Positions 7,455 to 45,711 of a DNA stretch of 64,000 nucleotides are shown here, one piece after another. The DNA is from Zetaproteobacteria bacterium (lineage in GTDB: Bacteria > Pseudomonadota > Zetaproteobacteria > Mariprofundales > Mariprofundaceae). The DNA is taken from contig JAJRTF010000109.1 in the NCBI GenBank assembly GCA_021545585.1, positions 2,524 to 66,523 of the forward strand, in the 5' to 3' direction. How positions within the stretch are numbered: the first letter of the stretch is position 1; every line of letters begins with the position of its first letter. The notes beneath the pieces were generated by a model. The model did not search any database. It saw only the letters and a program-made list of their open reading frames with translations, and was not told where the DNA came from. The translations under genes were made by a program, and so were the position numbers.

Positions 7455-7466
7455 CAGGAACGGCTT

Positions 7467-8855
7467 GTGACCCGGCAGGTTTCTTTTTTCGAAGAGTCTG
7501 CCTTATCGGAATCAACCGGGTCTGAGGTGGCTGTGCCGCTTGCCTATCGTATTCGCCCCAAAACGCTTGCTGATGTAGCCGGTCAGGCTGATCTGACATA
7601 TCCTGATTCATGGTTTGCACGCATGGTGGATGAGCAGCGTGCCATTTCATGCATTTTCTGGGGTCCTCCCGGAGTAGGCAAGACGACACTGGCGGCCATG
7701 ATGGCTGATGCGGCGGGACTGCCGCTGGCCCAGCTTTCCGCCGTATCAGCAGGCAAGGCCGAGGTGCAGGCCATCGTGAAGCGTGCAAAAGATGAAGGCA
7801 AAACATGGCTGTTATTCCTCGATGAAATCCATCGTTTTAACAAAGCACAGCAGGATGTACTGCTTCCCTATATTGAAGATGGCACCTTGGTGCTGGTGGG
7901 GGCAACCACCGAAAACCCGTCATTTTCGCTGAACAATGCCTTGCTGTCGCGCTGCCGGATCATTGTACTCAAAGCTTTGCAGCCCGATGATATCAAACAC
8001 ATCCTGCAACGTGCCTGTGAGCATCTGAGGCAGGCTCATCAGGCATTTGAAGTGGATGGGGATGCACTCGAATTTCTGGCCTGTGCAGCTGACGGCGATG
8101 CACGTTATGCATTGAATGCACTTGAGTCGCTGTTTGAGGCCGATGCCGAGCGCATCTGGAATCCCGAGGATGTGCAGGCACAGAGCCTGCGCCGCGCGGC
8201 CCGCTATGATCGGGATGGCGATGCACATTACGATCTGATTTCTGCACTGCACAAATGCGTACGCGATTCCGATGCCGATGCGGCTGTGTACTGGTTGGCG
8301 CGTATGCTGGAGGCGGGCGAAGAGCCGCTATATATTATGCGCCGCCTGATTCGTATGGCGACCGAGGATATCGGCCTGGCTGATCCCCGGGCACTGTCTG
8401 TGGCTATGGATGCACACCGCATGTACCAGGTGCTTGGCTCTCCCGAGGGGGAGCAGGGGCTGTTTGAAACGGCAATCTATCTGGCGCTAGCGCCGAAAAG
8501 CAATGCAGCCTATCGTGCCGAGAAAGCAGCCCGTAGCCTTGCCAGGAAGACGCAGGACACGGAGGTGCCGATGCATCTGCGAAATGCGCCGACCAGGCTG
8601 ATGCAGGAGCTTGGACATGGAAAAGGTTATCAGTATGCCCATGATGCGGATGATGCCGTTGTAGCCCAGCAGCATTTCCCCGATGGCGTACAAGGCGATA
8701 GTCTTTATCGACCGAGCGAGCGCGGCTTTGAAAAGACGCTGCAGAAGCGGCTGGCATGGCTTGCGTCCAGACGCTCGGGAATGCCGGATGAATCAGGGAG
8801 TACGGAGATATCCGGGAAGGCTGAAATATCCGGAGTGGGGAGGCATAAGGCATGA
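7467..8855 (+). CDS. rarA: replication-associated recombination protein A (AAA+ ATPase RarA/MgsA)
   Basis: Walker A (GPPGVGKTTLA), Walker B (LFLDEIHRFNK), and the MgsA C-terminal domain (HYDLISALHKCVRDSDADAAVYWLARML). Confidence 0.92.
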   Translation: MTRQVSFFEESALSESTGSEVAVPLAYRIRPKTLADVAGQADLTYPDSWFARMVDEQRAISCIFWGPPGVGKTTLAAMMADAAGLPLAQLSAVSAGKAEVQAIVKRAKDEGKTWLLFLDEIHRFNKAQQDVLLPYIEDGTLVLVGATTENPSFSLNNALLSRCRIIVLKALQPDDIKHILQRACEHLRQAHQAFEVDGDALEFLACAADGDARYALNALESLFEADAERIWNPEDVQAQSLRRAARYDRDGDAHYDLISALHKCVRDSDADAAVYWLARMLEAGEEPLYIMRRLIRMATEDIGLADPRALSVAMDAHRMYQVLGSPEGEQGLFETAIYLALAPKSNAAYRAEKAARSLARKTQDTEVPMHLRNAPTRLMQELGHGKGYQYAHDADDAVVAQQHFPDGVQGDSLYRPSERGFEKTLQKRLAWLASRRSGMPDESGSTEISGKAEISGVGRHKA

Positions 8856-32588: not shown

Positions 32589-33714
32589 ATGAGTGTTGAA
32601 GATCAGATTGCGGGATTCAGAAGCAGGGCGGAAGATTATTCCGTTCGCCTGAATGCGCTGCGGAGGTCACTTTGACGTTGAGGCCAGGGAAGACGAATTA
32701 CGCGAGCTGAATGCGCGCATTGAGGATCCGACCCTGTGGGATCAGCCCGATGAAGCGCAGGCCCTGATGCAGAATCGCACCCGTGTTGAGCGCGTGTTGA
32801 AGACTTTTTCGGGCGCCACTTCAGCATTGGATGATGCTGTGACCCTGTTTGAGATGGGGGCCGATGAAGGCGATCAGGATTCCCAGCTGGAAGCGGTTGA
32901 GGGGCTGAACGGGGTGCAGGCGGAGATCGAAAGGCTTGAACTTGCCCGGATGCTCGGTGGTGAAACGGATGCCGAGTCCGCCTTTCTGGATATCAATGCC
33001 GGATCAGGCGGTACCGAGGCCCAGGACTGGGCCGAGATGCTGTTGCGTATGTATCTGCGCTGGGCCGAGCGCAAGGGCTTTAAAACCGAGCTGATGGAAT
33101 GCACGGCGGGCGAAGAGGCCGGTATCAAGTCGGCCACGGTGTCGATCAAGGGCGAATATGCATATGGCTTCCTGAAAGCGGAGGTGGGCGTACACCGGCT
33201 GGTACGCAAGTCGCCGTTCGATTCGGGTAATCGTCGCCATACATCCTTTGCATCGGTTTTTGCCTATCCTGATATTGATCGCGAGATTGATATTGAGATT
33301 AACGAAGCGGATGTCCGTACGGACACCTATCGCGCCAGCGGCGCCGGTGGTCAGCATATCAACAAGACCGACTCTGCCGTGCGGCTGACCCATTTGCCGA
33401 CAAATATTGTCGTGCAGTGCCAGAATGACCGCTCCCAGCATAAAAACAGAGCTGCAGCATGGAGTATGCTCAAGGCCCGTTTGTATGAGCATGAGCTTAA
33501 AATTCGCAATGCCGAAAAGCAGGCGATGGAAGATGACAAGACCGATATCGGCTGGGGACATCAGATCCGTTCCTATGTGCTCGATCAGTCGCGCATCAAG
33601 GATCTGCGCACAGGCATGGAAACCGGCAATACCCAGGCCTTTCTGGACGGCGACATTGATGCTTTCATCCATGCCGAACTGATGGGTATCCGCCGCGGCG
33701 AGGGCGGGGAATAG
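32589..33714 (+). CDS. prfB: peptide chain release factor 2, expressed via programmed +1 frameshift
   Basis: Frame 0 runs from ATG 32589 to CTT 32670-32672 and then TGA 32673-32675. The +1 frame from GAC at 32674 continues to 33714. SPF (RKSPFDS) and GGQ (SGAGGQHINK) motifs are present. Confidence 0.92.
32662..32676 (+). promoter_or_regulatory. prfB autoregulatory frameshift cassette (internal SD GGAGG, then CTT TGA C)
   Basis: The sequence is GGAGG TCA CTT TGA C, identical in logic to the E. coli prfB shift site. Confidence 0.88.
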
Positions 33715-34424: not shown

Positions 34425-34457
34425 GGCCCCGTAAGCATAATTACGGGGCCTTTTTTT
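34425..34457 (+). terminator. strong intrinsic terminator after sspA
   Basis: GGCCCCGTAA-GCATAA-TTACGGGGCC (10-bp perfect stem) followed by TTTTTTT. Confidence 0.8.
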
Positions 34458-34536: not shown

Positions 34537-35172
34537 ATGATTGAGGTGTTGCACAAAGGCCAGGCAGGCTGGGATGAAGCGACAACCATGGTATCCCGGA
34601 CCTTTGAAAAGGCCTATGGGGCGCATATCAAACATTTCATGCCGCACTTTATCCGAGTTTCCGACAAGAATGATGAACTTAAGGCGCTGCTCGGCTATCG
34701 CGATGCCGGGAATGAAAAGCTGTTTCTTGAGGTTTACCTTGATGAACCTGTCGAGGTCGCGCTATCGCGCTATCTGGGTTATCCGGTTGAGCGTTCCAGT
34801 ATTATAGAGATGGGCAATCTGGCCGAAGTTGAAGCGGGCGATGCGCGCATGGGGATTATTGCCTGCACCGCATTCCTGTACACGGCCGGATACCGCTGGG
34901 TCGTGTTTACCGGCATCACCCGTTTACGCAACGCATTCCGCCGCCTGGGCATCGATACCAAGGAACTGATGGTGGCCGATGAAAGCAGGTTGAGTGATGA
35001 GCAAAGGGCTGACTGGGGAAGTTATTATGACGGCAACCCGGTTGTCTGTTTTGGTGATATCAAGCAGGGCCATGACAATCTGCAGGAGCTGTGGGTCAGC
35101 CTGCGTGATACATGGGCCAGCGCGGTGGAAGAGGGTGAGCGGCAGGCCGGGGTGAAGGAACCATCCGGATGA
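34537..35172 (+). CDS. thermostable-hemolysin-family protein (T_hemolysin, GNAT-like fold; putative acyltransferase)
   Basis: 211 aa. It matches the family pattern I remember from delta-VPH-like proteins: F..AYGA....FMP, LFLE.YLD.P.E, GNLA, W.VFT....LRN.F.RLG, and WGSYY...P.V..GDI. Confidence 0.65.
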   Translation: MIEVLHKGQAGWDEATTMVSRTFEKAYGAHIKHFMPHFIRVSDKNDELKALLGYRDAGNEKLFLEVYLDEPVEVALSRYLGYPVERSSIIEMGNLAEVEAGDARMGIIACTAFLYTAGYRWVVFTGITRLRNAFRRLGIDTKELMVADESRLSDEQRADWGSYYDGNPVVCFGDIKQGHDNLQELWVSLRDTWASAVEEGERQAGVKEPSG

Positions 35173-36695
35173 GCCGGGTTCTCGAAGCGGTTTTTCATGT
35201 TGCCGGAGAACATCCTGAAAGCGTAGCGCTGGAAGCGTTGCACGATGCTGAATCACTGACTTACAGTGAGTTTGCAGCGTCTGTTGAAGAGCTGGCCGCA
35301 CAGCTTAAGGACGCGGGATCCGGTCCTTGTGCATTGCTGGCAGATAATACGCCGGCCTGGGCCGTTGCCGATCTGGCAGCGATTCACGCCCATATCCCCC
35401 TGGTTCCCGTGCCTCATTTTTTCAGCCCTGAGCAGATTCATCACCTGATTCAAAGTTCCGGAGTTACGGCGCTGCTAACCGATCAACCCGATCAGGCGGC
35501 GGTGTTGCTCGATGGGCTGGGTGTTGCCCATGCATCGCCAGTCCTTTATCAGGCCGGCAAACAGTCGTTGTCAGTATTTGTTTTGCAGGGAGAGAAAACC
35601 GCCACCCGGCCACAATTAAAAAACTGTGCCAAACTCACTTATACCTCCGGTTCAACGGGCGATCCGAAGGGCGTGTGCCTGAGGCAGGACGTTATGGAAA
35701 CAGTGGCTGCATCCTTGGCCGCTGCAACAGAGGCAACTGCGGCTGAGCGGCATCTTGCAGCGTTGCCGTATGCGACCTTGCTGGAGAATATCGGCGGCCT
35801 GTACGCGCCATTGCTGGCAGGTGGTACGGTGTGCGCTCCCGGACTGGCGGCAGTGGGGCTGTCAGGCGCATCCGGCCTGGATGTCGGGCAATTTGTTAGT
35901 ATCCTCCAGGAGCGTCGCATCAGCACCTGCATCATGATTCCGCAAATGCTGCACGGGCTTGTTGCCGCGCTTGAGGCAGGCATGCCCAGGCCTGAATCCC
36001 TGCGCTATATCGCTGTGGGCGGGGCGCCGGTTTCCGAATATCTGTTGCAGCGCGCCGACGCACTCAATCTGCCTGTGTTTGAGGGCTATGGCCTGTCCGA
36101 GGCAGCCAGTGTCGTGGCAGTCAACAGGCCGGGGGCATGCAGGGCCGGCAGTGTCGGCAAGCCCTTGCCGCATGTCGAGCTGAGCTTCGCCGAGGATGGC
36201 GAAATACTGGTGCGCGGCAGCCTGTTTTCGGGTTATCTGGGAGATGCCGCGCTGGCCGGGGATGCCTGCTGGCCGACCGGTGATATTGGCAAGCTTGATG
36301 ATGAGGGTTTTCTGCACCTGACCGGGCGTAAAAAACATCTGTTCATCACTGCCTTTGGACGTAATGTTTCACCCGAATGGGTGGAGCGGGAACTGAGCAT
36401 TGAACCGGCCATTGCACAGGCCTGTGTGTTCGGTGAGGCGAGGCCTTTTAATGTAGCTGTCATCCAGCCTCGAGAGGGTGTGGCCGATGAGTCGCCCGAA
36501 GCAGCGGTACAGCAGGCCATTGATATGGCAAACGGGCGATTGCCGGATTATGCGCGCGTATCGCACTGGCTTATGGCCGATGAGCCGTTCAGCGTTGCCA
36601 ATGGTCTGTGGACAGGCACCGGCAGGCCGCGCCGACAGATGATTTATAAAGCCTATGAAACAGGGATTGAAGATCTGTACAAGGAGTTTGCATGA
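35169..36695 (+). CDS. AMP-dependent synthetase/ligase (adenylate-forming enzyme)
   Basis: Motifs TYTSGSTGDPKGV, EGYGLSE, TGDIGKLDDEGFLHLTGRKK. Its start overlaps the upstream stop (ATGA). Confidence 0.88.
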   Translation: MSRVLEAVFHVAGEHPESVALEALHDAESLTYSEFAASVEELAAQLKDAGSGPCALLADNTPAWAVADLAAIHAHIPLVPVPHFFSPEQIHHLIQSSGVTALLTDQPDQAAVLLDGLGVAHASPVLYQAGKQSLSVFVLQGEKTATRPQLKNCAKLTYTSGSTGDPKGVCLRQDVMETVAASLAAATEATAAERHLAALPYATLLENIGGLYAPLLAGGTVCAPGLAAVGLSGASGLDVGQFVSILQERRISTCIMIPQMLHGLVAALEAGMPRPESLRYIAVGGAPVSEYLLQRADALNLPVFEGYGLSEAASVVAVNRPGACRAGSVGKPLPHVELSFAEDGEILVRGSLFSGYLGDAALAGDACWPTGDIGKLDDEGFLHLTGRKKHLFITAFGRNVSPEWVERELSIEPAIAQACVFGEARPFNVAVIQPREGVADESPEAAVQQAIDMANGRLPDYARVSHWLMADEPFSVANGLWTGTGRPRRQMIYKAYETGIEDLYKEFA

Positions 36696-37360
36696 GTTTT
36701 TATGATGAATTACTAGCTGCAACCGAGGAGGAACGAAACGATCTGTTGTCGATTCCATTTATCCAGATGGGTGCGGTGGGGCAGTTATCGCTGGAGAGCT
36801 ACGAGGCTTTTCTGGGCCAGGCCTATCACCATGTGAAGCATACCGTGCCTCTGCTGATGGCCACCGGGGGGCGCTTGCCTGAAGAGAAGGAATGGCTGCG
36901 TGAAGCCATTGGTGAATATATTGAAGAGGAAATGGGCCATCAGGAATGGATATTGAACGATATCGAGGCCTGTGGTGGTGATAAGGAAGCGGTTCGCCAT
37001 GCCACCCCCTCAGCGGCTACGGAACTGATGGTGGCCTATGCCTACGATACCATTCAGCGCTGCAATCCTGTCGGTTTCTTTGGTATGGTACTGGTGCTTG
37101 AGGGTACCAGCGTGTCACTGGCGACCCAGGCGGCCGATCATATCCGGCAGGCGCTGGATTTGCCCAAAAAGGCTTTTTCCTATCTGACTTCGCATGGTTC
37201 GCTGGATGTCGGGCATGTTGATTTCTATGAAAAGCTGATGAATCGTCTGGAAAAGGATGAGGATAAGCAGGCCGTGATCCATGGTGCCAGGATGTTCTAC
37301 AAGCTGTATGGCGATATCTTCCGCAGCTTGCCATTGATTGCCATCAAGCAGGAGTCCTGA
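36692..37360 (+). CDS. heme-oxygenase-like di-iron enzyme (TenA / Haem_oxygenas_2 iron-containing redox enzyme family)
   Basis: 222 aa and all-helical. Candidate carboxylate/His ligands are spaced as in HDOs (YHHVKH, EYIEEEMGHQEW, LVLEGTS, SHGSLDVGHVDF). Its start overlaps the upstream stop (ATGA). Confidence 0.65.
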   Translation: MSFYDELLAATEEERNDLLSIPFIQMGAVGQLSLESYEAFLGQAYHHVKHTVPLLMATGGRLPEEKEWLREAIGEYIEEEMGHQEWILNDIEACGGDKEAVRHATPSAATELMVAYAYDTIQRCNPVGFFGMVLVLEGTSVSLATQAADHIRQALDLPKKAFSYLTSHGSLDVGHVDFYEKLMNRLEKDEDKQAVIHGARMFYKLYGDIFRSLPLIAIKQES

Positions 37361-38152
37361 ATGAAAATGAACGACAAACATATCATTCTGACCGGCGCCG
37401 CTGGCGGCATGGGTCGGATACTGGCTGCCAGCCTGCATGAACGCGGTGCCAGGTTGTCACTGGTGGATGCAAATGCAGGGGTATTGAACGAGGTGGCCGG
37501 GGAACTGGCGGGAGCGCATGCCATTGTCGGTGATCTGTCCACAGCCGGGGGATGTGCCGAGATTGCCGCAGCTGCACAGACAGGCCATGGTCCGGTGGAT
37601 GTATTGATCAATCTGGCCGGCATGATGAGCTTCCGCTGCTATGAGGATGAAGACCCGGCCATGATTGAGCGCATTGTGCAGGTCAACCTGCTCGGAGCCA
37701 TGCAATTGAGCCGCGCTGTATTGCCGGAGATGGTAGAGCGCAACAGCGGGCGTATTATCAATGTCGGTTCGGTATTCGGCTCGATTGCCTTCGCCTATTT
37801 TACCGCTTATTCGGCCAGCAAATTCGGCCTGCGCGGTTTTTCCGAGGGCCTGCGCCGGGAACTTTACGATACCGATATCCGTGTCATGTATGTGGCGCCG
37901 AGAGCGGTGAAAACCCCGTTGAATACCGGCCGTATCATGCGCATGGGCGCTGCAACCAAGATGAATATGGACGATCCGGAACTGGTGGTGAAGAAGATCA
38001 TGCAGGCCATCGATAATGATCGAAAGGAAGTATATATTGGCTTCCCGGAATCGTTTTTTGTCGGCATCAATGTTCGCTTTCCGAGGCTTGTGGACAAGGC
38101 GCTGGCTGCCCAGAATCGCATTGCCCGTAAATTTGCCAAAGAAGAAGATTAA
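37361..38152 (+). CDS. short-chain dehydrogenase/reductase (SDR)
   Basis: TGAAGGMG, NLAG, S...YSASK catalytic triad. The ATG directly abuts the upstream TGA. Confidence 0.88.
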   Translation: MKMNDKHIILTGAAGGMGRILAASLHERGARLSLVDANAGVLNEVAGELAGAHAIVGDLSTAGGCAEIAAAAQTGHGPVDVLINLAGMMSFRCYEDEDPAMIERIVQVNLLGAMQLSRAVLPEMVERNSGRIINVGSVFGSIAFAYFTAYSASKFGLRGFSEGLRRELYDTDIRVMYVAPRAVKTPLNTGRIMRMGAATKMNMDDPELVVKKIMQAIDNDRKEVYIGFPESFFVGINVRFPRLVDKALAAQNRIARKFAKEED

Positions 38153-38163
38153 GGAGGATGAAT

Positions 38164-38823
38164 ATGAAAAAGACTTTTTTATTGCTGGCGGGGCTTTTGC
38201 TGGCCGGGTTACCGGCTTTTTCCGCTGCCCATGCTGAGGATACCGCGCTGCAACTGTCGCAGCGCTGGGATCAAATCAAATACAAGACCGCTGACAAGAA
38301 GGAGCGGGTTGCCGCTTATGAAAAGCTGATTGCCGATGCCAAGGCACTGGCAGCCAAAGAACCTGAGAATCCGGCACCGAAGGTCTGGGCCGGTATTACG
38401 CTCGCCACACTGGGCGGTGAAGTTGGCGCTATGGGTGGCGCTTTATCGAAGGTGAAGGAAGCTAAGGCTCTGCTCGAAGAGGCACTTGCCCTGCATCCCG
38501 GGCCGGAGCTTGAAACCTCGATTCATACCACGCTGGGCAGCCTGTACTATCAGGTGCCGGGCTGGCCGCTTGGCTATGGTGATGAAGACAAGGCGGTGGA
38601 GCATCTGAACAAGGCGCTTGAGCTGAGTCCCGACGGGCTGGATTCGCACTTCTGGATGGCTTCATACCTGTGGGATGAAACCCGAAAATACAAGCAGGCG
38701 GCCGAACATTTCAGAAAGACCCTCGCCGCACCGGCCCGCCCCGGACGTGAAATTGCTGATGCCGGACGCAAGGCAGAGGCAAAAGAGCTGCTGGCCAGGG
38801 TGGAAAAGAAAATCCGTCATTGA
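38164..38823 (+). CDS. secreted TPR-like helical-repeat protein
   Basis: It has a signal peptide (AFSAAHA/ED) and helical repeats with a TPR-like A/L/Y spacing. The ATG at 38164 lies 7 nt after AAGGAGG. It is the last gene of the operon. Confidence 0.55.
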   Translation: MKKTFLLLAGLLLAGLPAFSAAHAEDTALQLSQRWDQIKYKTADKKERVAAYEKLIADAKALAAKEPENPAPKVWAGITLATLGGEVGAMGGALSKVKEAKALLEEALALHPGPELETSIHTTLGSLYYQVPGWPLGYGDEDKAVEHLNKALELSPDGLDSHFWMASYLWDETRKYKQAAEHFRKTLAAPARPGREIADAGRKAEAKELLARVEKKIRH

Positions 38824-38919
38824 TTCATGCGTCGGGGCAGGCTGGTTTTGGCCATCCTGCCCCGATATTTTTTGATTGACCTCAAGGGGGCATTCGCTAA
38901 TCTTCGCCGCGCTCACTAG

Positions 38920-38996
38920 GTCCCCATCGTCTAGTCGGCCTAGGACACCGCCCTTTCACGGCGGCAACAGGGGTTCGAATCCCCTTGGGGACGCCA
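38920..38996 (+). tRNA. tRNA-Glu (anticodon UUC)
   Basis: The acceptor GTCCCCA pairs with TGGGGAC. The anticodon stem-loop is CCGCC-CTTTCAC-GGCGG and the T arm AGGGGTTCGAATCCCCT. CCA is encoded. Confidence 0.92.
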
Positions 38997-39004
38997 ACTG
39001 TCAA

Positions 39005-39042
39005 GGCTTCGGAAGGCTTTCTTCCGGAGCCTTTTTCCTTTT
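39005..39042 (+). terminator. intrinsic terminator after tRNA-Glu
   Basis: GGCTTCGGAAG-GCTTT-CTTCCGGAGCC (one mismatch) followed by TTTTTCCTTTT. Confidence 0.65.
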
Positions 39043-39222
39043 GATTTCATTGTGAGTCTGAAACGGAGACTTCTGGCGATTAAGCATTCTCTGCCTGCAT
39101 CAGAGCATTTGAGTGCATCTTGACAGGGGGAGGGAGGGTTGCCTGTTCCAGTATATAAAATTTACGCTCTGAAAAAAATCACTTCATTGAATTTTAATTT
39201 AATCGAGCCTAGCGTCGACCGC

Positions 39223-39648
39223 ATGTTGATACGCCGAATGAATCTTCGTGGTTTGTCCCGCCTGATGGCCGGGCTTTTTGCTGTGCAGATTATGGTAGCG
39301 GGCTTCTGCCTGTTGACGGCCGATGCACACGCTATATCGATGCATCAGATGATGCCGGAGCAGGCCGAGCAGCTGGCAGAGGATATGGCGGAGCATTGCA
39401 GTAAATCGCTTGCCGGTAGTGATCAGCATCATGCCGATTCCTGTTTCCATTGCGATGATCCGGATATGTTCGTTAAGGCAGCTCCTGTTGACCTGCCGGG
39501 TTTTGATCCGGTGCTGTCTTTTGTCGCAACATTGCCCGATATTTCTGTATCGATTGTTTCAACGCTGGCGCCCAGTGGCCTGATGCCGACCGGGCCGCCG
39601 CGCTCATCTTCACTCCTTTTTTCAACAACCCAACGCATCCGCGTTTGA
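39223..39648 (+). CDS. small exported Cys/His protein preceding the cus-type RND operon (positional analogue of CzcI/CusX-type proteins)
   Basis: It has an N-terminal TM/signal segment, a HCSKS...DQHHADSCFHCDDPD cluster and a C-terminal PTGPPRSSS motif. The family is not recognised with confidence. Confidence 0.45.
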   Translation: MLIRRMNLRGLSRLMAGLFAVQIMVAGFCLLTADAHAISMHQMMPEQAEQLAEDMAEHCSKSLAGSDQHHADSCFHCDDPDMFVKAAPVDLPGFDPVLSFVATLPDISVSIVSTLAPSGLMPTGPPRSSSLLFSTTQRIRV

Positions 39649-39740
39649 TACCCGTCTTCTGCTAATACTGCAGTTCGTATGAACTGTGGTGTGCGCGCCT
39701 TTGCGGTTGCGTACGAATCATACGCAGGAGGCACGTGCGC

Positions 39741-41120
39741 ATGCATGTTCCAGTAAAAGCCCAGTCACGGCTGGCAGTTTTAACATTTTCACTGATGCTG
39801 ATATCAGTGGCATGGAGCCCGCTCCCGGCCAGCGCTAAAGCTTCGCTATTGAGCCTGGCTGCAGCTGAACAGATAGCGATTGATCATAATCCGGCCTTGA
39901 TGGCGGCGGGCAGTCAGGCTGCGGCGATGGCGGCTGTGCCTTCGCAGGTGGGCACGCTTCCCGATCCGAAAGTGTCATTTAAGGCGCTGAATCTGCCGGT
40001 GGACTCTTTTTCGGCCACACAGGAAAACATGACTCAGTTGCAACTGGGCATTTCACAGGCCATTCCATTCCCCGGCAAACTCGGTCTGAAAGCCGAAGCC
40101 GCTGAACATATGGCTGCGGCTGCACTGGAGAACAGGCAGGAATTCCGGCTTGTACTGCTGCGCAATACCCGCATTCACTGGTGGAATCTGGCCTATCTGG
40201 ACAAGGCGCTGGAAATCATTCGCCGCAATCAGGACCTGTTGCGGAATCTGGTGAAGATTGCCGAAACGAAATACAAGACAGGCAAAGGCTTGCAGCAGGA
40301 TGTGCTGCTGGCGCAACTGGAACTGTCCAAACTGCTTGAGCGGGAACTGAATCTGGTTGCGGTACGTGCGAGCGAAGCAGCCAGGCTCAATGCGCTTTTG
40401 GGCCGTCCTGCCGCCACTGCGATTATATTGCCGCAACAAAATGCGCATGACCTGAAAGAATTGACCTATAAAAACAGCCATGACCTGGAAAGCATCCATG
40501 AGCAAACCGGGCTTCTTAAACAGTGGGCCCGGGCACATCGTCCGATGTTGCTGAGTATGGACTGGCGGATAAAAGCGAGCGATTCACGACTGGCGCTGGC
40601 AGAGAAGGATTACTATCCGGACTTCAATCTTGGTGCGGCCTACGGCTTCCGTTCGGGTGTGAATCCGGCCAATCAGCAACCGCGGGCGGATTTTGCTTCC
40701 ATTATGCTGAGCATGAGTGTGCCATTGTACGCGGGAAGCAAACAGGACAAGGCCGTGGATCAGCGCACGGCTGAAAAAGCTCAGGCTGAATTCCTGTGGG
40801 AAGATGCCGCCAATCAGGTGGATGCGGATATTGATGCTGCGGCATCAGATTTCAGGATTGCGCGCAACCAGCTCATTCTGTTCGAAAAAGGCATCCTGCC
40901 TCAGGCACGGCAGACAACAGCCTCCATGCTGGCCGGTTATCAGGTGAACAAGGTGGACTTTCTTAACCTGGTTCGCGCCCAACTCAATGAATTCAATACG
41001 GATATCCAATACTGGCTGCAGGTATCGAAGGCTCATCAGGCCGAAGCGCGCCTGGCAGCTGCCGCAGGTAAAGAAACGCTGGAACATGAAGCGAACAAGG
41101 AAGTTATCAATCATGAATAA
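39741..41120 (+). CDS. cusC: outer-membrane factor of a Cu/Ag-type RND pump (TolC family)
   Basis: 460 aa with a signal peptide and two OEP repeats (NP.L.....A........G.LPDP..). The ATG at 39741 lies 9 nt after AGGAGG. Confidence 0.8.
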   Translation: MHVPVKAQSRLAVLTFSLMLISVAWSPLPASAKASLLSLAAAEQIAIDHNPALMAAGSQAAAMAAVPSQVGTLPDPKVSFKALNLPVDSFSATQENMTQLQLGISQAIPFPGKLGLKAEAAEHMAAAALENRQEFRLVLLRNTRIHWWNLAYLDKALEIIRRNQDLLRNLVKIAETKYKTGKGLQQDVLLAQLELSKLLERELNLVAVRASEAARLNALLGRPAATAIILPQQNAHDLKELTYKNSHDLESIHEQTGLLKQWARAHRPMLLSMDWRIKASDSRLALAEKDYYPDFNLGAAYGFRSGVNPANQQPRADFASIMLSMSVPLYAGSKQDKAVDQRTAEKAQAEFLWEDAANQVDADIDAAASDFRIARNQLILFEKGILPQARQTTASMLAGYQVNKVDFLNLVRAQLNEFNTDIQYWLQVSKAHQAEARLAAAAGKETLEHEANKEVINHE

Positions 41121-42492
41121 CAAGAATATGATCATTTTAGTTGTTGCTTTGGGGCTGGGGCTGGCCGGTGGCTATGTGCTCTTTGGCTCGAAGGGTGGCG
41201 ATCAGACCGCCACATCTGCCAGAGGCGACGGTCCGTGCGCCAACGGCGCGCAGCCGCTGACATGGCGTAATCCGATGAATCCGTCGGTTACCAGCCCGAC
41301 GCCGGCGAAAGACCCGATGGGCATGGATTATGTGCCTGTCTGTGCGGAAGATGCAGCCGCAGGCGGCAATGCTCCTGCCGGTACGGTCACGATTGATCCA
41401 ACCGTTACGCAGGATATTGGTGTACGGGTGGCGAGAGCCGAGCAAAGGAATTTATCACGCGAGATCACCACGGTTGGGCGCATTACCTATGATGAAACGA
41501 AGCTGGTCACGCTGCATCCGAAAGTGGATGGCTGGGTGGATAAGCTTTTTGTCGATAAAACCGGCGAGAGCGTAAAGAAAGACACCATGTTGCTATCTTT
41601 TTATTCGCCGCAACTGGTGGCTTCCCAGGACGAGTATCTGCTGGCACTGGCCAATTGGGAGCAATTGAAAGACAGTCCCTATGTGGATATCCGCGATGGC
41701 GCCGGGCGGTTGCTGGAATCATCGCTGGATCGGTTGCGCTTTTTCGATGTGGCCGAACACCAGATCAGGAAACTGCAAAAAACGCACAAGGTACGTAAAA
41801 GCATGCATATCCATGCGCCGGCTGCCGGTGTGGTCACCAAGATCGGCGTGCGTGAAGGTGCGCATGTGTCACCCAGTTCCGAGCTTTACCAGATTGCTGA
41901 TCTGTCACGTGTCTGGGTGCTGGCGGACCTGTATGAATATGAGATTTCCTGGGTCAAAGTCGGGGATGAAGCCAGGCTGAATATCCAGTCGCTGCCCGGC
42001 CGCGATTTTACCGGCCATATCACCTATATTTATCCCTATCTGGATGCCAAGACGCGTACCAACAAGGTGCGCATCGAATTCGACAATGCCGAGGGCTTGC
42101 TCAAGCCGGATATGTTCGGTGATGTAACCATTGCTGCCTCAGTGAAAAAGCCCGGTGTATTCGTGCCCAGGGAGTCGGTGTTGATTACCGGCAAACGGGC
42201 GCATGTATTCGTTCAAACCAGACCCGGCCGTTTTGAGCCGCGCACGGTGAAAACCGGCGCCAGAAGTGATGGTCTTCTCGAGATTCTCGACGGTGTCAGG
42301 GCCGGCGAACTGGTGGTGTCCAGCGGACAGTTCCTGATTGATTCCGAATCCTCCATCCGTGAAGCGGCTGCCAAAATGGTGGCCCCCAAGCAACCTCAGC
42401 AGAGCTCCATGGATGGCATGGATATGGATGGCATGGATATGAAGGGGATGGATATGAAGGGGATGGATATGAAGGGGATGGGGCATGAGTAA
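41113..42492 (+). CDS. cusB: periplasmic adaptor (MFP) of a Cu/Ag-type RND pump with a Met-rich repeat tail
   Basis: It has an N-terminal anchor, an HlyD/CusB-like barrel-sandwich region (MHIHAPAAGVVTKIGVREG) and a C-terminal MDGMDMDGMDMKGMDMKGMDMKGMGHE tail. It overlaps cusC by 8 nt. Confidence 0.85.
   Translation: MNNKNMIILVVALGLGLAGGYVLFGSKGGDQTATSARGDGPCANGAQPLTWRNPMNPSVTSPTPAKDPMGMDYVPVCAEDAAAGGNAPAGTVTIDPTVTQDIGVRVARAEQRNLSREITTVGRITYDETKLVTLHPKVDGWVDKLFVDKTGESVKKDTMLLSFYSPQLVASQDEYLLALANWEQLKDSPYVDIRDGAGRLLESSLDRLRFFDVAEHQIRKLQKTHKVRKSMHIHAPAAGVVTKIGVREGAHVSPSSELYQIADLSRVWVLADLYEYEISWVKVGDEARLNIQSLPGRDFTGHITYIYPYLDAKTRTNKVRIEFDNAEGLLKPDMFGDVTIAASVKKPGVFVPRESVLITGKRAHVFVQTRPGRFEPRTVKTGARSDGLLEILDGVRAGELVVSSGQFLIDSESSIREAAAKMVAPKQPQQSSMDGMDMDGMDMKGMDMKGMDMKGMGHE
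42409..42483 (+). repeat. in-frame tandem repeat, (ATGGATATGAAGGGG)x3 preceded by ATGGATGGC-type units, encoding (MDG/MDMKG)n
   Basis: Read directly from the sequence. Three perfect 15-nt units lie at 42433-42477, with two related degenerate units upstream. Confidence 0.9.
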
Positions 42493-42522
42493 ATTTGCTG
42501 GTATTGCTTTCGGGGTACGCAC

Positions 42523-45500
42523 ATGATTGCAAAAATTATTGATGCGAGTCTGCGCAACAAGCTGCTGGTGCTTATCTTTACCGGCATACTGGTTGCAGCG
42601 GGAGCATTCGCAGTAAAAAATATTTCACTGGATGCCATTCCTGATTTGTCCGATGTGCAGGTGATTGTGTTCACTGATTATGCAGGTCAGGCGCCGCAGG
42701 TGGTTGAGGATCAGGTGACCTATCCGTTGACCACGGCCATGCTGGCTGTACCGCATTCCAAGGTAGTGCGCGGTTATTCGTTTTTCGGTTTTTCGGTGGT
42801 GTATATCATCTTTGAAGACGGTACGGATATGTACTGGGCGCGTTCGCGGGTGCTGGAATATCTGAACTATGTGGCCGGGCGCTTGCCTGCAGGTGTTACC
42901 CCGTCGCTGGGCCCGGATGCCACCGGTGTGGGCTGGGTATACGAATACGCACTGGTCGATAAATCGGGCAAGCATGATTTGTCCGAACTGCGTTCGATTC
43001 AGGACTGGTATATGCGCTATGCATTGCAAACGGTCAGCGGCGTATCCGAAGTTGCTTCAATGGGCGGCTTTATCAAACAGTATCAGGTTGAGGTTGATCC
43101 CAATGCCATGGCCGAATACGGCATCCCGCTGGCCAAGGTGAAGCATGCGATCAAGCGTTCGAATAACGATGTCGGCGGTCGCCTGATCGAGATGGGCGAA
43201 ACCGAGTTCATGGTGCGCGGCAAGGGCTATCTGAAAGGCATTGCCGATTTGGAGAGCATCCCTGTCGGTGTGGATCTGCACGGTACGCCGATTCTGTTGC
43301 GCGATGTGGCACATATCCATCTGGGGCCGGAGCTCAGGCGCGGGCTGGTCGAGCTGAATGGCGAGGGTGAAGTGGCTGGCGGCGTGATTATTATGCGCTT
43401 TGGCGAGAATGCATTAACCACCATTGAAGCGGTACGCGAAAAGCTGGAGGAGCTGAAAAAAGGTCTGCCGGATGGGGTGGAGATTATACCGACCTATGAT
43501 CGCGGCGATCTGATCGAGCGGGCAGTGGAAAACCTGAAAGACAAGCTGTTCGAGGAATTCATTGTCATTTCGCTGGTCTGCATGTTATTTTTGATGCATG
43601 CCCGTTCCGCCCTAGTGGCCATTGTGACCCTGCCGCTTGGTGTGCTGATCGCCTTTATGCTGATGCAGTGGCAGGGCCTGGCGGCCAATATCATGAGCCT
43701 CGGAGGTATCGCCATCACCCTTGGAGCCATGGTCGATGGTGCCATCGTGCTGATTGAGAATGCGCATAAGCATCTGGAACATGCATTGCACGACAAAGCA
43801 AAAAAACTCGGGCAGCAAATGGATGCGATCCAGTTGTCTGCCAAAGAGCGCTGGGCTGCTGTGGGACAGGCTTCACGCGAGGTCGGGCCGGCATTGTTCT
43901 TCTCGCTGCTGATTATCACCGTGTCGTATATGGCGATATTCACGCTCGAAGCGCAGGAAGGACGGCTGTTCAAGCCGCTGGCCTTTACCGCCACTTACGC
44001 GATGCTCGGCTCGGCTGTATTGGCGGTGACGCTGGTGCCGTTGCTGATGGGCTGGTTTATTCGCGGAAAGGTGATGCCGGAAGAGAAGAATCCGGTGAAT
44101 CGCGCCCTGCAATGGGCGCACGGACCGGCACTGGCCAATGCGCTGAAGCATAAATGGGTCACGTTGCTGATTGCCGTGGGCCTGCTGTTTTCCATGGCTA
44201 TTCCAATGTCGAAAATCGGTTCGGAATTTATGCCGCCGCTGGACGAAGGCGATATCCTGTATATGCCGACCACGTTCCCCGGCCTTTCGATTACCAAGGC
44301 CAAGGAACTGGTGCAGCAGACGGACCGGATCCTTAAAACCTTCCCCGAAGTGCGGTCGGTATTCGGCAAGGTGGGGCGCGCGGATTCGGCAACCGATGCA
44401 GCCCCTTTATCGATGATGGAAACGATTATTCGTCTGAAGCCTAAAGAGGAATGGCCGCAGCCGGATAAATCAACGCAGGAACTGATGCGGGAAATGGATG
44501 CGGCGATCAAGTTCCCGGGGCTTGCCAATGCCTGGACGTATCCGATCAAGACGCGCATCGACATGCTGTCAACCGGCATCAAGACGCCGATCGGCATCAA
44601 GGTATCCGGCCCGGATCTGAACGTGCTGCAGGAAGTCGGCAAATCGATTGAACAGGCGGTCAAGACTCTGTCGGAAACCACATCGGCATTCAGTGATCGC
44701 GCTGCCGGCGGTTATTATCTGGATATTGATATTCAGCGGGATCAGGCGGCGCGTTACGGCCTGACCGTGGGCGATATCGAAGATGTGATTCAATCGGCCA
44801 TTGGCGGCATGAATGTGACGCCAACCGTGGAAGGGCTGGAGCGTTATCCGGTGAACCTGCGCTATCCGCGCGATTATCGCAGCGATCCTGATGCATTGAA
44901 ACGGGTGCTGATTCCAACACCGACCGGTGCGCAGATTCCATTGATCGCCGTGGCCGAGATCAGCATCTCGCGCGGGCCACCGTCGATCAAGAGTGAAAAT
45001 GCACGCCTGAATGCCTGGATCTATGTCGATATCAGTTCCAGCGATATCGGCGGCTATGTTGCCCAGGCAAAACAGGTGATTCGTGATCAGGTGAAGATAC
45101 CGGCCGGTTATACGCTGGAGTGGTCGGGTCAGTTTGAATACATGGAGCGGGCAGCCGCGAAAATGCGCATTGTGATTCCGGCCACCCTGTTGCTGATCTT
45201 TTTACTGCTGTATTTCAATTTCGGCAGTCTGACTGCACCGGTCGTGGTGATGATGAGTGTGCCGTTTTCGCTGATCGGCGGTTTCTGGCTGGTCTGGTGG
45301 CTGGGCTTCAATCTGAGTGTGGCCGTGGCTGTCGGGTTTATTGCTCTGGCCGGTGTGGCCGCTGAAATCGGAGTGCTGGTGCTGACCTTCATTGATCAGG
45401 AAATCACGCTGCGTCGCAAGGCGATCGGTGATGGTTTTTCGGAAAAGGATCTGAGTGAAGCGGTGCAAAGCGGAGTGGCCAAACGTGTGCGTCCGATTGC

Positions 45501-45711
45501 AATGACGGCGACTGCCGTCATTGCGGGCCTGGTACCGATTATGCTAGGCGGCGGTACGGGCTCGGATGTCATGCAGCGCATCGCTGCACCAATGATCGGC
45601 GGCATGGTAACGACCACGTTGCTGTGTCTGATCGTGTTGCCGGTGATCTACGGCATGATTTTACAGCTTCAGGAAAAGCGAATAACAAACAGGAGAAAAG
45701 ATGATGAATAA
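42523..45711 (+). CDS. cusA: heavy-metal RND transporter, CusA/SilA type
   Basis: 1062 aa with 12 TM helices. GAMVDGAIVLIENAHKH and SEFMPPLDEGDILYMPT are characteristic of monovalent-cation HME-RND pumps. Confidence 0.9.
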   Translation: MIAKIIDASLRNKLLVLIFTGILVAAGAFAVKNISLDAIPDLSDVQVIVFTDYAGQAPQVVEDQVTYPLTTAMLAVPHSKVVRGYSFFGFSVVYIIFEDGTDMYWARSRVLEYLNYVAGRLPAGVTPSLGPDATGVGWVYEYALVDKSGKHDLSELRSIQDWYMRYALQTVSGVSEVASMGGFIKQYQVEVDPNAMAEYGIPLAKVKHAIKRSNNDVGGRLIEMGETEFMVRGKGYLKGIADLESIPVGVDLHGTPILLRDVAHIHLGPELRRGLVELNGEGEVAGGVIIMRFGENALTTIEAVREKLEELKKGLPDGVEIIPTYDRGDLIERAVENLKDKLFEEFIVISLVCMLFLMHARSALVAIVTLPLGVLIAFMLMQWQGLAANIMSLGGIAITLGAMVDGAIVLIENAHKHLEHALHDKAKKLGQQMDAIQLSAKERWAAVGQASREVGPALFFSLLIITVSYMAIFTLEAQEGRLFKPLAFTATYAMLGSAVLAVTLVPLLMGWFIRGKVMPEEKNPVNRALQWAHGPALANALKHKWVTLLIAVGLLFSMAIPMSKIGSEFMPPLDEGDILYMPTTFPGLSITKAKELVQQTDRILKTFPEVRSVFGKVGRADSATDAAPLSMMETIIRLKPKEEWPQPDKSTQELMREMDAAIKFPGLANAWTYPIKTRIDMLSTGIKTPIGIKVSGPDLNVLQEVGKSIEQAVKTLSETTSAFSDRAAGGYYLDIDIQRDQAARYGLTVGDIEDVIQSAIGGMNVTPTVEGLERYPVNLRYPRDYRSDPDALKRVLIPTPTGAQIPLIAVAEISISRGPPSIKSENARLNAWIYVDISSSDIGGYVAQAKQVIRDQVKIPAGYTLEWSGQFEYMERAAAKMRIVIPATLLLIFLLLYFNFGSLTAPVVVMMSVPFSLIGGFWLVWWLGFNLSVAVAVGFIALAGVAAEIGVLVLTFIDQEITLRRKAIGDGFSEKDLSEAVQSGVAKRVRPIAMTATAVIAGLVPIMLGGGTGSDVMQRIAAPMIGGMVTTTLLCLIVLPVIYGMILQLQEKRITNRRKDDE

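Follow-up and report, generated by a model that had tools for sequence, protein, structure and literature searches.

In the 64,000-nucleotide stretch of the Zetaproteobacteria bacterium contig JAJRTF010000109.1 analysed here (the window), five translationally coupled plus-strand genes were found at positions 34537-38823, flanked by two terminators. Gene 1 (34537-35172, 211 aa) belongs to the T_hemolysin family (PF12261), gene 2 (35169-36695, 508 aa) encodes an adenylate-forming (ANL) acyl ligase, gene 3 (36692-37360, 222 aa) a heme-oxygenase-like di-iron oxidase (HDO), gene 4 (37361-38152, 263 aa) a classical SDR and gene 5 (38158 or 38164 to 38823, 221 or 219 aa) an exported TPR protein resembling the TatT/BstC type. 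Direct reading of the sequence placed the stop codon of gene 1 and the start codon of gene 2 in an ATGA overlap at 35169-35172, those of genes 2 and 3 in another at 36692-36695, and those of genes 3 and 4 in direct abutment, TGA followed by ATG, at 37358-37363. The junction of genes 4 and 5 was read as TAAGGAGGATGAATATG at 38150-38166, in which the plus-strand Shine-Dalgarno sequence AAGGAGG (38151-38157) lies 6 nt from the ATG at 38164. Because of this spacing, we preferred that ATG as the start codon, leaving 11 nt between genes 4 and 5; the ORF list begins gene 5 at 38158.

The 5' boundary of the operon is the plus-strand intrinsic terminator of an upstream sspA-like gene (34425-34457), where a hairpin scan and sequence reading showed a stem of 10 bp (34425-34450), 7 of them G-C, and then TTTTTTT. 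At the 3' boundary, a terminator-like hairpin with a T-run was read on the plus strand downstream of gene 5 (38834-38873), where GGGGCAGG (38834-38841) and CCTGCCCC (38856-38863) enclose a 14-nt loop and are followed by GATATTTTTTG. The terminator scan was limited to loops of 8 nt or less and therefore missed this hairpin, which, judging from its sequence, ends the operon ahead of the tRNA-Glu at 38920-38996. The earlier note on this DNA had described five co-oriented, coupled genes between the upstream terminator and tRNA-Glu, and its coordinates and junctions all agreed with this reading.

Gene 1 matched Pfam T_hemolysin with an E-value of 5.4e-56, while no PDB entry matched it by sequence. 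The top Foldseek matches of its AF2 model (pLDDT 93.6) were TofI, LasI, RpaI, MesI, BjaI and FeeM, where the AHL synthases and FeeM were matched with E-values of 2.6e-8 to 7e-6, against about 1e-4 for ordinary GNATs, and TM scores to the LuxI/FeeM folds were 0.51-0.57. Among these closest folds, RpaI, BjaI and MesI are CoA-dependent AHL synthases and FeeM is an N-acyl amino acid synthase; the DfoC acyltransferase domain appeared at rank 37. No LuxI sequence signatures were detectable in gene 1 by Pfam or hhalign (0.3% probability against LasI) and, since the likeness is at the fold level only, its catalytic residues could not be mapped from LuxI/FeeM. Among 15 diverse family members, R86, Y67, G161, Y163, Y164 and P168 were invariant and E91 and W160 nearly so. 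We predict from the model that gene 1 is a LuxI/FeeM-like GNAT-fold acyltransferase, and the Pfam and Foldseek results both agree with its earlier placement in a T_hemolysin/GNAT-like group.

These closest folds favour an acyl-transfer role for gene 1 over a toxin role. Taken literally, the annotation would make gene 1 a secreted heat-stable pore-forming hemolysin with unrelated neighbours, a reading that we find scarcely credible. Clones of Vibrio delta-VPH/dth are said to have lysed erythrocytes in the work of Taniguchi in 1990 and Fallarino in 2002, and the Pfam and NCBI names derive from that lysis phenotype, but the protein is cytoplasmic with no signal peptide, has a compact acyltransferase-like GNAT fold, is obligately linked and at times fused to an acyl ligase, and is found in non-pathogenic chemolithotrophs. 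Moreover, dth had no clear role in hemolysis or virulence (PMC6474259).

The earlier identification of gene 2 as an adenylate-forming ligase was borne out by Pfam matches to AMP-binding (2.9e-52) and AMP-binding_C_3 (9.9e-14) and by the intact, invariant motifs A3 (TSGTTGxPKG), A5 (EGYGLSE), A7 (TGD) and A8 (GRxK). At the A10 position, where ANL enzymes carry a catalytic Lys, gene 2 has an invariant Arg486, so its chemistry may be atypical. Its best PDB relatives, at about 1e-25, were CoA ligases for oxalate, feruloyl/fatty-acyl substrates and o-succinylbenzoate.

Gene 3, which is conserved more strongly than any other gene of the cassette, matched Haem_oxygenas_2 (1.7e-36) and also TENA_THI-4 in Pfam. 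In nine orthologs from four classes, the six metal ligands E80-x2-H83, E137 and H168-x3-D172-x2-H175 were invariant, as proposed earlier for an HDO with a six-residue di-iron site, and Y45, H47 and H50 were likewise invariant. The best PDB match was the uncharacterized entry 3DDE (7e-13), whereas CADD and AetD were matched at 0.03 and 0.1. For gene 4, assignment to the classical SDRs was upheld by a Pfam adh_short match of 1.4e-47, an NCBIfam PRK09072 match of 267.5 bits (cutoff 238), an invariant TGAxGGxG motif and an intact, invariant N109-S137-Y150-K154 catalytic tetrad; the best PDB match was the (3R)-hydroxyacyl-CoA dehydrogenase 2et6 with 115 bits, the runner-up scoring 88 bits.

The same gene order was found in 16 zetaproteobacterial genomes and, with differing flanking genes, in Zeta-, Beta-, Gamma- and Alphaproteobacteria; the T_hemolysin-ligase-HDO-SDR core also occurs between unrelated flanks in Vibrio, Pseudoalteromonas, Citrobacter, Variovorax, Novosphingobium and Sideroxydans. 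We then surveyed 80 metagenome loci, using only the HDO as the seed; they represent 46 lineage clusters with a GC content of 0.35-0.67. Where the contig leaves room for the neighbour to be counted, the ligase was next to the HDO in 75/75 loci, T_hemolysin in 55/55 and the SDR in 69/70, and the median gap between genes of cassettes elsewhere was -4 nt. Ligase-HDO fusions were found in Novosphingobium (678 aa) and Pseudoalteromonas (719 aa), and a T_hemolysin-ligase fusion of 726 aa in a metagenome locus (L058). From the near-constant adjacency in 46 lineage clusters, the gene order shared across classes and the 4-nt overlaps, we infer that the four enzymes are one functional unit. The five genes are thus not adjacent by chance, and the ligase, HDO and SDR accompany T_hemolysin well beyond this genome, a question that the earlier note had raised; the family matches, the di-iron site and the synteny on which it had staked its reading were all found.

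The TPR gene is an accessory member of the cassette, found in 36 of the 57 HDO-seeded metagenome loci with room on the contig and missing from about 37% of cassettes. The description of gene 5 as a secreted TPR-like part of the operon therefore stood for the protein but not for a constant place in the cassette. Its signal peptide ends in FSAAHA ahead of ED, and Pfam TPR_1/TPR_2 were matched barely over cutoff. Matches to BstC and TatT were under the family cutoffs: NCBIfam BstC was matched at 4.2e-11, a profile of the orthologs matched BstC (7t1s) at 2e-10 and 8g52 at 2.6e-7, and Pfam TAtT was matched by 2 of 9 orthologs, the one from Novosphingobium being annotated as TatT family. The top Foldseek match was again 8g52, a TPAT family transporter component (7e-4, TM 0.60), and no TRAP permease accompanies gene 5. 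By analogy, this resemblance to TatT/BstC-type lipid-binding TPR proteins fits a role of gene 5 in handling the product in the periplasm.

The product of the operon is most likely a small acylated lipid or signal molecule and not a protein toxin. The reading that we prefer, with a confidence somewhat short of even, is a self-contained cytoplasmic pathway that depends on acyl-CoA and supplies the envelope with an acyl-amide amphiphile modified by oxidation, alongside a protein that handles the product in the periplasm. The ligase would activate a carboxylic acid, most likely to acyl-CoA because the cassette encodes no carrier protein. The HDO would carry out an O2-dependent oxidation of the acyl group, such as hydroxylation or desaturation, and the SDR would interconvert hydroxy and oxo groups on the acyl chain. 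Gene 1 would move the tailored acyl group onto an amine acceptor, for example an amino acid or SAM (the cassette encodes nothing that makes an unusual amine), to give an N-acyl amide similar to a lipoamino acid. Gene 5 would bind this hydrophobic product in the periplasm and help bring it to the outer membrane. An amphiphile of this kind might also be the link to hemolysis. The ligase-HDO fusions and the best match of the SDR to a (3R)-hydroxyacyl-CoA dehydrogenase suggest that tailoring on acyl-CoA precedes transfer, so that the opposite order given in the earlier note is probably wrong. Acyl-CoA chemistry is supported by 2et6 as the relative of the SDR and by the CoA ligases as the nearest solved relatives of gene 2.

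The SDR match and the fusions are also compatible with a CoA-dependent catabolic or detoxification module, in which an acid would be converted to its CoA thioester, oxygenated in that form by a di-iron enzyme and oxidised by the SDR, with the GNAT-fold gene 1 as a thioesterase or transferase. The model is likened to the Box and Paa pathways, where BoxB and PaaABCE set the precedent for pairing a ligase with a di-iron oxygenase whose substrates are CoA thioesters. We nevertheless consider such a module quite improbable: the conserved set never includes a hydratase, thiolase, ring-cleavage enzyme or uptake transporter, its gene content stays constant and minimal in bacteria that live very differently, obligate chemolithoautotrophic iron oxidisers among them, which disfavours a carbon-source pathway, and an exported lipid-binding-type TPR protein and envelope-sensor neighbours would be unexpected.

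For the acyl-amide amphiphile, the cell envelope is the favoured destination because the cassette is elsewhere accompanied by a PmrAB/QseBC-like sensor and lipid A remodelling genes. This two-component system directly adjoins the cassette in 16 of the 46 lineage clusters, being immediately downstream in Vibrio, Pseudoalteromonas, one gammaproteobacterial MAG and many metagenome loci. The best matches of its response regulator were PmrA (240 bits) and QseB (228 bits), those of its histidine kinase QseC and PmrB. Neither a two-component system nor a LuxR-type receptor was found near the cassette in the window, in the 16 zetaproteobacterial loci or in Sideroxydans; the operon is thus an orphan with no regulator here, as first described, but not in every lineage. 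EptA adjoins the cassette in 4 lineage clusters (592 bits, over cutoff), and a PAP2 lipid-A-phosphatase-like protein and an LtaS/OpgB-like transferase were also found adjoining cassettes. Such envelope-gene neighbours are confined to about 4 lineage clusters, an ArnT-like PMT_2 gene was found at one locus (L040), and none of these neighbours occurs in the window, nor does the two-component system.

The two-component neighbour is equally compatible with a signalling role, and the main rival, which we judge rather unlikely, is that the cassette synthesizes a diffusible acyl-amide autoinducer, AHL-like or a 3-oxo-acyl amide. T_hemolysin would then represent a third type of LuxI-like synthase, with a dedicated acyl-CoA ligase as its supplier and the HDO and SDR determining how oxidised the acyl chain is; the signal would be received by the periplasmic TPR protein together with the adjacent QseC-like kinase. 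The AHL synthase folds closest to gene 1, CoA-dependent ones included, and the two-component system in 16 of 46 clusters, most of which also carry the TPR gene where the response regulator is present, speak for this model, as does the HDO, whose very strong conservation implies a precisely defined small molecule. LuxM/LuxN and CqsA/CqsS of Vibrio are precedents for a synthase encoded beside its sensor kinase. On the other hand, loci with no receptor nearby and the missing LuxI signatures weigh against a signal, the two-component system matches PmrAB, an envelope and Fe(III) sensor, equally well, and the lipid A remodelling neighbours suit a structural lipid better.

Iron-related neighbours bring in a further model, in which the HDO, likened to the N-oxygenases SznF, BelK and PvfB, would yield an N-hydroxy amine. 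T_hemolysin would join this to the acid activated by the ligase, and the resulting acyl-hydroxamate would bind iron, so that the cassette would serve iron handling. Several HDOs are N-oxygenases and GNAT-type enzymes make hydroxamates in siderophore pathways, in line with the DfoC domain among the fold matches. In 6 lineage clusters, the genes after the two-component system encode an EfeU/Ftr1-like permease and a cupredoxin; in Novosphingobium, ECF sigma, FecR and TonB receptor genes come after the cassette, which is also carried by iron oxidisers (Zetaproteobacteria and Sideroxydans). We regard this metallophore as improbable, given that the conserved core has no NIS synthetase, NRPS, exporter or cognate receptor, that the scheme gives the SDR no obvious role, that the ligase-HDO fusions suggest action of the HDO on the acid or acyl side and not on the amine, and that the iron-related neighbours are limited to certain lineages. 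PmrAB-type systems are themselves responsive to Fe(III), and this could account for the iron links with no metallophore involved.

We found no paper on the function of the cassette, and the old hemolysis phenotype was the only experimental record found for its members. With the acyl-amide pathway as the preferred reading, the T_hemolysin family, misnamed 'thermostable hemolysin', gains a testable enzymatic role. The T_hemolysin-ligase pairing was already known as the 'dth region' of Vibrio cholerae (PMC12208996, which, like PMC6474259, cites Fallarino 2002), and to this known pair the present analysis adds a T_hemolysin-ligase-HDO-SDR core that recurs across four proteobacterial classes.

The five cassette genes were all present on the + strand at the positions that the earlier note had read from the sequence. 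The ORF listing placed gene 1 (T_hemolysin) at 34537-35172, gene 2 (an ANL acyl ligase) at 35169-36695, gene 3 (a heme-oxygenase-like di-iron oxidase, HDO) at 36692-37360, gene 4 (an SDR) at 37361-38152 and gene 5 (a secreted TPR protein) at 38158-38823 or 38164-38823, according to which of two candidate starts is taken. The ATGA overlaps at 35169-35172 and 36692-36695 and the TGA/ATG abutment at 37358-37363 were exact, and the 11-nt gap described before gene 5 holds with ATG 38164, the likelier start, as AAGGAGG (38151-38157) lies 6 nt 5′ of it. The upstream terminator (stem 34425-34450 with a T-run) and the downstream tRNA-Glu (TTC; 38920-38996), both previously reported to flank the operon, were found again, the tRNA gene being followed by a strong terminator with a 14-bp stem at 39003-39033. 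A further terminator-like hairpin was read from the sequence just 3′ of gene 5 (38834-38863, followed by a T-run to 38873), which the automated terminator scan had missed because its loop is 14 nt long. A terminator thus lies at either end of the operon, and the hairpin at 38834-38873 probably separates tRNA-Glu from the operon transcript.

Because the genes overlap or abut, the operon has no space for a carrier gene, and no carrier-protein gene (ACP/PCP) was found in the cluster or among the conserved neighbour sets, which bears out the earlier statement that no carrier protein is encoded nearby. No riboswitch or other Rfam element was found in the operon, and a conserved operator 5′ of gene 1 was rejected because the intergenic region varies across Zetaproteobacteria. 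The GC content of the operon was 0.559 versus 0.546 for the window, with similar GC3; on this match, together with sspA/prfB flanks that are kept across Zetaproteobacteria, a recent horizontal acquisition was rejected.

The surroundings of the operon held two other features. The prfB gene (release factor 2; 32590-33714) showed the classic +1 programmed frameshift, in which a short upstream ORF runs from ATG 32590 into CTT TGA C at 32670-32676 and the ORF listing starts the main ORF at 32653. Downstream of the cassette lies a CusCBA-type heavy-metal efflux operon (39139-45711), encoding a TolC-like outer membrane protein (39735-41120), a CusB-like adaptor with a Met/Asp-rich repeat (MDGMDMKGMDMKGM) at its end (40987-42492) and a CusA/CzcA pump (42523-45711), preceded by a 169-aa His/Met/Cys-rich ORF without a family match (39139-39648). 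A tie between the cassette and this RND pump was discarded, as the pump is of the CusCBA type and not syntenic with the cassette elsewhere.

The loci closest to the window were from Mariprofundaceae genomes and MAGs, and the window is zetaproteobacterial in origin. The gene order was kept in 16 of 16 related zetaproteobacterial loci as far as their contigs reach, along with the upstream sspA-like gene and prfB. With unrelated flanks, all five genes were found in Sideroxydans (Betaproteobacterium), Vibrio sp. HDW18 and a conjugative plasmid of V. parahaemolyticus, and four of them in a gammaproteobacterial MAG; the cassette was also found among unrelated genes in Pseudoalteromonas, Variovorax, Novosphingobium (Alphaproteobacterium) and a mobilizable plasmid of Citrobacter freundii. 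The adjacency therefore recurs across four proteobacterial classes. None of 5,426 complete Escherichia coli genomes carried the cassette, with only an IS26 end being matched.

A metagenome scan seeded by the HDO alignment alone yielded 80 loci, in which neighbours were counted only where the contig leaves room for them. The ligase accompanied the HDO in 75 of 75 such loci, T_hemolysin in 55 of 55 and the SDR in 69 of 70, while the TPR gene was a neighbour in 36 of 57. By these counts, the four enzymes are obligate partners of one another, with the TPR protein as a frequent accessory. Dereplication at 80% HDO identity of the loci with a called HDO ORF, the window included, gave 46 lineage clusters with a GC content of 0.35-0.67.

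Several lineages encode cassette members as single proteins. The ligase and HDO of Novosphingobium pentaromativorans form one 678-aa ORF without an internal stop that has both Pfam domains (L024:7519-9555, a locus compared with the window), a 719-aa ‘AMP-binding protein’ of Pseudoalteromonas shioyasakiensis (L111:4522-6681) spans the HDO match, and the same fusion pattern was seen in four more Pseudoalteromonas records. The metagenome locus L058 contains a 726-aa single ORF (5834-8014) that combines T_hemolysin, AMP-binding and AMP-binding_C_3. The ligase is thus physically joined to the HDO and to T_hemolysin in different lineages, which is strong evidence that the three proteins share one substrate stream.

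We also observed a second type of cassette, in which T_hemolysin and the ligase are joined by a TauD/TfdA dioxygenase, an MFS transporter and, in some copies, a hypothetical protein, on plasmids of Pantoea agglomerans (L027:6950-12385) and Streptomyces (L025:6995-11693). The Streptomyces copy sits inside a ketosynthase/KSIII/cyclase cluster. T_hemolysin and the ligase thus make up an invariable core to which different oxygenases can be added, suggesting that this pair is a reusable acylation module of natural-product clusters.

Gene 1 matched T_hemolysin (PF12261) over profile positions 2-173 of 174 with an E-value of 5.4e-56 (189.6 bits against a cutoff of 27), so its assignment to the thermostable-hemolysin family stood. 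This family comprises 2,204 clusters at 50% identity; the best 120 matches of a profile search were all close relatives and included no distant members, and the distant members named here were taken from a plasmid collection. The predicted structure (pLDDT 93.6) was a compact alpha/beta GNAT fold. Gene 1 had no sequence relatives in the PDB, and in the Foldseek comparison foreseen in the earlier note the nearest folds were AHL synthases and FeeM: the best matches of the model were the LuxI-type proteins TofI, LasI, RpaI, MesI and BjaI (E-values of 2.6e-8 to 3e-5, TM-scores of about 0.5-0.66), EsaI was likewise close, FeeM (2g0b) was among the top matches (7e-6, TM 0.56/0.65), and generic GNATs trailed LuxI and FeeM by an order of magnitude. 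Neither Autoind_synth (PF00765; E<=0.1) nor PF13444 was matched by gene 1, and hhalign of the T_hemolysin family alignment against LasI, a confirmed Autoind_synth member, gave a probability of 0.3%. The LuxI catalytic residues could not be placed on gene 1 by profile alignment, there being no detectable sequence similarity. Judged from the predicted structure, gene 1 is akin to LuxI and FeeM at the fold level only, and by sequence it belongs to neither family.

The literal annotation of gene 1 as a pore-forming or secreted protein toxin would call for an export signal or a membrane-inserting architecture. No N-terminal signal peptide was found in its sequence, which argues against a secreted toxin, and the GNAT fold and the obligate enzyme partners make this reading hardly tenable.

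The identification of gene 2 as an adenylating ligase with core motifs was upheld by Pfam matches to AMP-binding (2.9e-52) and AMP-binding_C_3 and by intact A3, A5, A7 and A8 motifs, with TSGTTGxPKG, EGYGLSE, TGD and GRxK invariant in 11 orthologs. At the A10 position, an invariant Arg486 replaces the usual catalytic Lys (T482-x-x-G485-R486-x-x-R489), and this Arg, within the stretch NGLLTxNGRPRR, is common to both cassette types. The solved structures nearest to gene 2 were CoA ligases.

Gene 3 was likewise correctly recognized as an HDO: it matched Haem_oxygenas_2 (PF14518; 1.7e-36, 126.1 bits, cutoff 28.9) as well as TENA_THI-4, and has a complete 3-His/3-carboxylate ligand set. The ligands E80-x2-H83, E137 and H168-x3-D172-x2-H175 were invariant across Zeta-, Beta-, Gamma- and Alphaproteobacteria, as were Y45, H47 and H50. 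This fully conserved E-x2-H, E, H-x3-D-x2-H pattern is that of UndA and CADD. The score against the CADD/pABA-synthase model TIGR04305 was nevertheless 41.3 bits, under its cutoff of 200, the PDB sequence matches to CADD and AetD were marginal (E-values of 0.03 and 0.1), and the structure nearest to gene 3 was the uncharacterized 3DDE. Gene 3 thus falls into none of the characterized HDO subfamilies (UndA, CADD, BesC, SznF and AetD); its own subfamily is essentially confined to the cassette. The HDO was also the best-conserved gene, with 47-66% identity between classes as against 29-46% for T_hemolysin.

Gene 4 is a classical SDR, as proposed, matching adh_short at 1.4e-47 and the uncharacterized NCBIfam equivalog PRK09072 at 267.5 (cutoff 238). 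The TGxxxGxG motif and the N-S-Y-K tetrad were intact, with T11-G12-A13-x-G15-G16-x-G18, N109, S137, Y150 and K154 invariant, and the residue closing beta-strand 2, which bears on cofactor preference, differed among orthologs. Like the core motifs of genes 2 and 3, these motifs were unchanged in orthologs from four proteobacterial classes. The best solved relative of gene 4 was a (3R)-hydroxyacyl-CoA dehydrogenase at 115 bits, with the runner-up at 88.

For gene 5, a signal peptide and a TPR Pfam match agreed with the exported, TPR-like protein described earlier. The gene 5 protein of the window had no match to TAtT (PF16811) and scored 42.8 bits against BstC (NF045602), under the cutoff of 350. 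TAtT was matched by two of nine orthologs at 4e-6, one ortholog, from Novosphingobium, is annotated as TatT family, and the ortholog profile matched BstC (7t1s) at 2e-10 and also the TPAT-family component 8g52. Foldseek of a single-sequence model (pLDDT 82.6) ranked 8g52 first (7e-4, TM 0.60) as the sole match below 1e-3, with BstC at rank 9 and TatT (3u64) at rank 35. As the scores lie below the TatT and BstC family cutoffs, we regard this as resemblance and not membership. Both TatT and BstC are TPR proteins of the periplasm with hydrophobic ligands, and BstC is named sterol transporter protein in NCBIfam. Gene 5 is, like both, an exported all-helical TPR protein, but that of the window has no lipobox cysteine, and no TRAP permease or BstA/BstB partner was found in the window or the conserved neighbour sets.

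We then considered the neighbours of the cassette in other lineages by clustering the flanking ORFs over 113 loci, followed by dereplication by HDO identity. In 16 of the 46 lineage clusters, the genes immediately 3′ of the cassette encode an OmpR-type response regulator and a histidine kinase, and these adjacent regulators were about 47% identical among Vibrio, Pseudoalteromonas and a gammaproteobacterial MAG. The best families were PmrA (240 bits) and QseB (228 bits) for the response regulator and QseC (254 bits) and PmrB (172 bits) for the kinase, all below cutoff. By tblastn, no two-component system was found beside the cassette in the window. The description of the operon as an orphan without a regulator therefore holds within the window but not for the cassette in general.

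In about four other lineage clusters, the cassette adjoins an EptA phosphoethanolamine-lipid A transferase (592 bits, above cutoff), together with a PAP2 lipid-A-phosphatase-like protein, an LtaS/OpgB-like transferase and cytochrome b561; an ArnT-like PMT_2 protein was found at a single locus (L040). The window contains no lipid A genes. Two secreted proteins without Pfam or NCBIfam matches were also encoded on the strand of the cassette, some kilobases 5′ of it, a 353-aa porin-like protein (L050:1913-2974) and a 162-aa protein (L046:836-1324), and occurred in 14-17 further metagenome loci, mainly freshwater loci that also carry the EptA, PAP2 and LtaS-like genes. In a gammaproteobacterial MAG (L019:424-5929), the cassette is divergent beside two very large multiheme cytochromes of 843 and 983 aa with faint matches to MtrC/MtrF-like domains.

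The adjacent kinases bear on the main rival explanation, in which the cassette makes a diffusible acyl-amide signal that is sensed by the neighbouring QseC-like kinase. No sensor lies nearby in Zetaproteobacteria or Gallionellaceae, and we consider a signal of this kind unlikely.

In six lineage clusters, the next genes after the PmrAB/QseBC-like kinase encode a Cupredoxin_1 protein and an EfeU/Ftr1-like permease (L028:13085-14171, L111:10115-11168, L064:5445-5813 and L099:12777-13607), and they may form an iron-uptake unit under the same sensor. Neither of the two is a neighbour of the cassette in the window. Such iron-related neighbours fit an acyl-hydroxamate metallophore, for which the HDO would act as an N-oxygenase; since that reading leaves both the SDR and the ligase-HDO fusions unexplained, it appears quite improbable.

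Our preferred reading is an acyl-CoA-dependent pathway to a tailored N-acyl amphiphile. The ligase would activate a carboxylic acid, probably to the acyl-CoA, because no carrier is encoded, its nearest relatives are CoA ligases and the folds nearest to gene 1 include CoA-dependent synthases. The HDO and SDR would act on the acyl chain, probably at the thioester stage, an order favoured by the ligase-HDO fusions and by the similarity of the SDR to hydroxyacyl-CoA dehydrogenase. T_hemolysin would then move the acyl group onto an amine to give the N-acyl amphiphile, which the TatT/BstC-like protein would handle in the periplasm. A role in envelope remodelling is favoured by the occurrence of PmrAB-like sensors and lipid A enzymes beside the cassette in other lineages. 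We consider the common biosynthetic core of this scheme to be probable, while the full proposal, including periplasmic handling and envelope remodelling, is tentative, with a chance that we would put just short of even.

A CoA-dependent catabolic module would start from the same ligase step. Every downstream catabolic enzyme is missing, and a module of this type would be odd for obligate chemolithoautotrophs, so we judge it very unlikely.

With T_hemolysin as the acyl-transfer step of the N-acyl amphiphile pathway, its name would be wrong. Surveys of Vibrio and Aeromonas regularly count this family among the virulence genes. Since N-acyl amino acids have surface activity, the product could be what caused the hemolysis by cloned Vibrio genes, and the old phenotype would become a testable enzymatic side effect. 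The HDO subfamily would gain a genetic handle, with the acyl product of the ligase as its likely substrate. The PmrAB/QseBC-like sensors, EptA-type enzymes and TatT/BstC-like carrier suggest an unrecognized level of envelope remodelling or signalling, with possible consequences for polymyxin and metal tolerance and, more speculatively, for how the cell surfaces of iron oxidizers cope with Fe(III). A broader idea is that T_hemolysin represents a third family of LuxI/NAS-like acyl-amide synthases, unrelated to the others in sequence, that makes, with the ligase, HDO and SDR, a new class of oxidized acyl-amides bound by the TatT-like protein and sensed by the QseC/PmrB-like kinase. This is doubtful in our estimation, but if true it would amount to a new signalling or envelope-adaptation circuit in at least four proteobacterial classes, including Vibrio cholerae and marine and freshwater iron oxidizers. 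Tractable carriers include Vibrio, Pseudoalteromonas, the conjugative V. parahaemolyticus plasmid and the mobilizable Citrobacter plasmid, and the natural fusions could serve biochemical work as stable constructs. A role in anti-phage defence was rejected, as none of the five proteins matched PADLOC models.

In the literature, the Vibrio dth/delta-VPH family is described by its hemolysis phenotype only, without a reaction, product or operon logic, and in virulome papers dth serves solely to mark hemolysin, its contribution being uncertain (PMC6474259). The V. cholerae dth gene VCA1111 adjoins the ligase gene VCA1110, labelled ‘DthC’ in a ‘dth region’ (PMC12208996), and this table entry is the sole published notice of the T_hemolysin-ligase arrangement that we found. 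A full-text search returned no paper tying T_hemolysin to an HDO, an SDR, biosynthesis, acyl transfer, the envelope or signalling, and papers on Zetaproteobacteria offered nothing on the subject either. The window cassette differs from Vibrio dth in its non-pathogenic context, a deep-sea-type iron oxidizer.

By analogy with RpaI and BjaI, which are among the systems structurally closest to gene 1, gene 1 would take acyl-CoA and not acyl-ACP, from a supplier ligase encoded next door. The cassette differs from LuxI systems in that gene 1 has no sequence-level relationship to them, no LuxR-type receptor is present, and the HDO and SDR are obligate partners, for which we know of no precedent among LuxI systems. 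FeeM-type NAS and OlsB enzymes belong to PF13444, use acyl-ACP and, to our knowledge, are never coupled to an adenylating ligase, HDO or SDR; NAS enzymes make surface-active N-acyl amino acids, and such a product would account for hemolysis by E. coli clones. FeeM is among the top fold matches of the gene 1 model, and the protein has no PF13444 match. Vibrio AlmEFG, which decorates lipid A, pairs an adenylating enzyme with a transferase, as does the cassette, but the latter has no AlmF-type carrier protein and its transferase is unrelated to AlmG. The tie to PmrAB-controlled envelope systems (EptA and ArnT) consists of neighbourhood in other lineages.

In sum, the components come from known superfamilies, and RpaI/BjaI and FeeM are precedents for an acyl-CoA ligase that supplies a LuxI/NAS-like transferase. 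What is new is the placement of T_hemolysin in the LuxI/FeeM structural branch, as suggested by its predicted fold, the obligate four-enzyme unit with a cassette-specific HDO and natural fusions, the TatT/BstC-like accessory protein, and the PmrAB/QseBC and lipid A neighbourhood.
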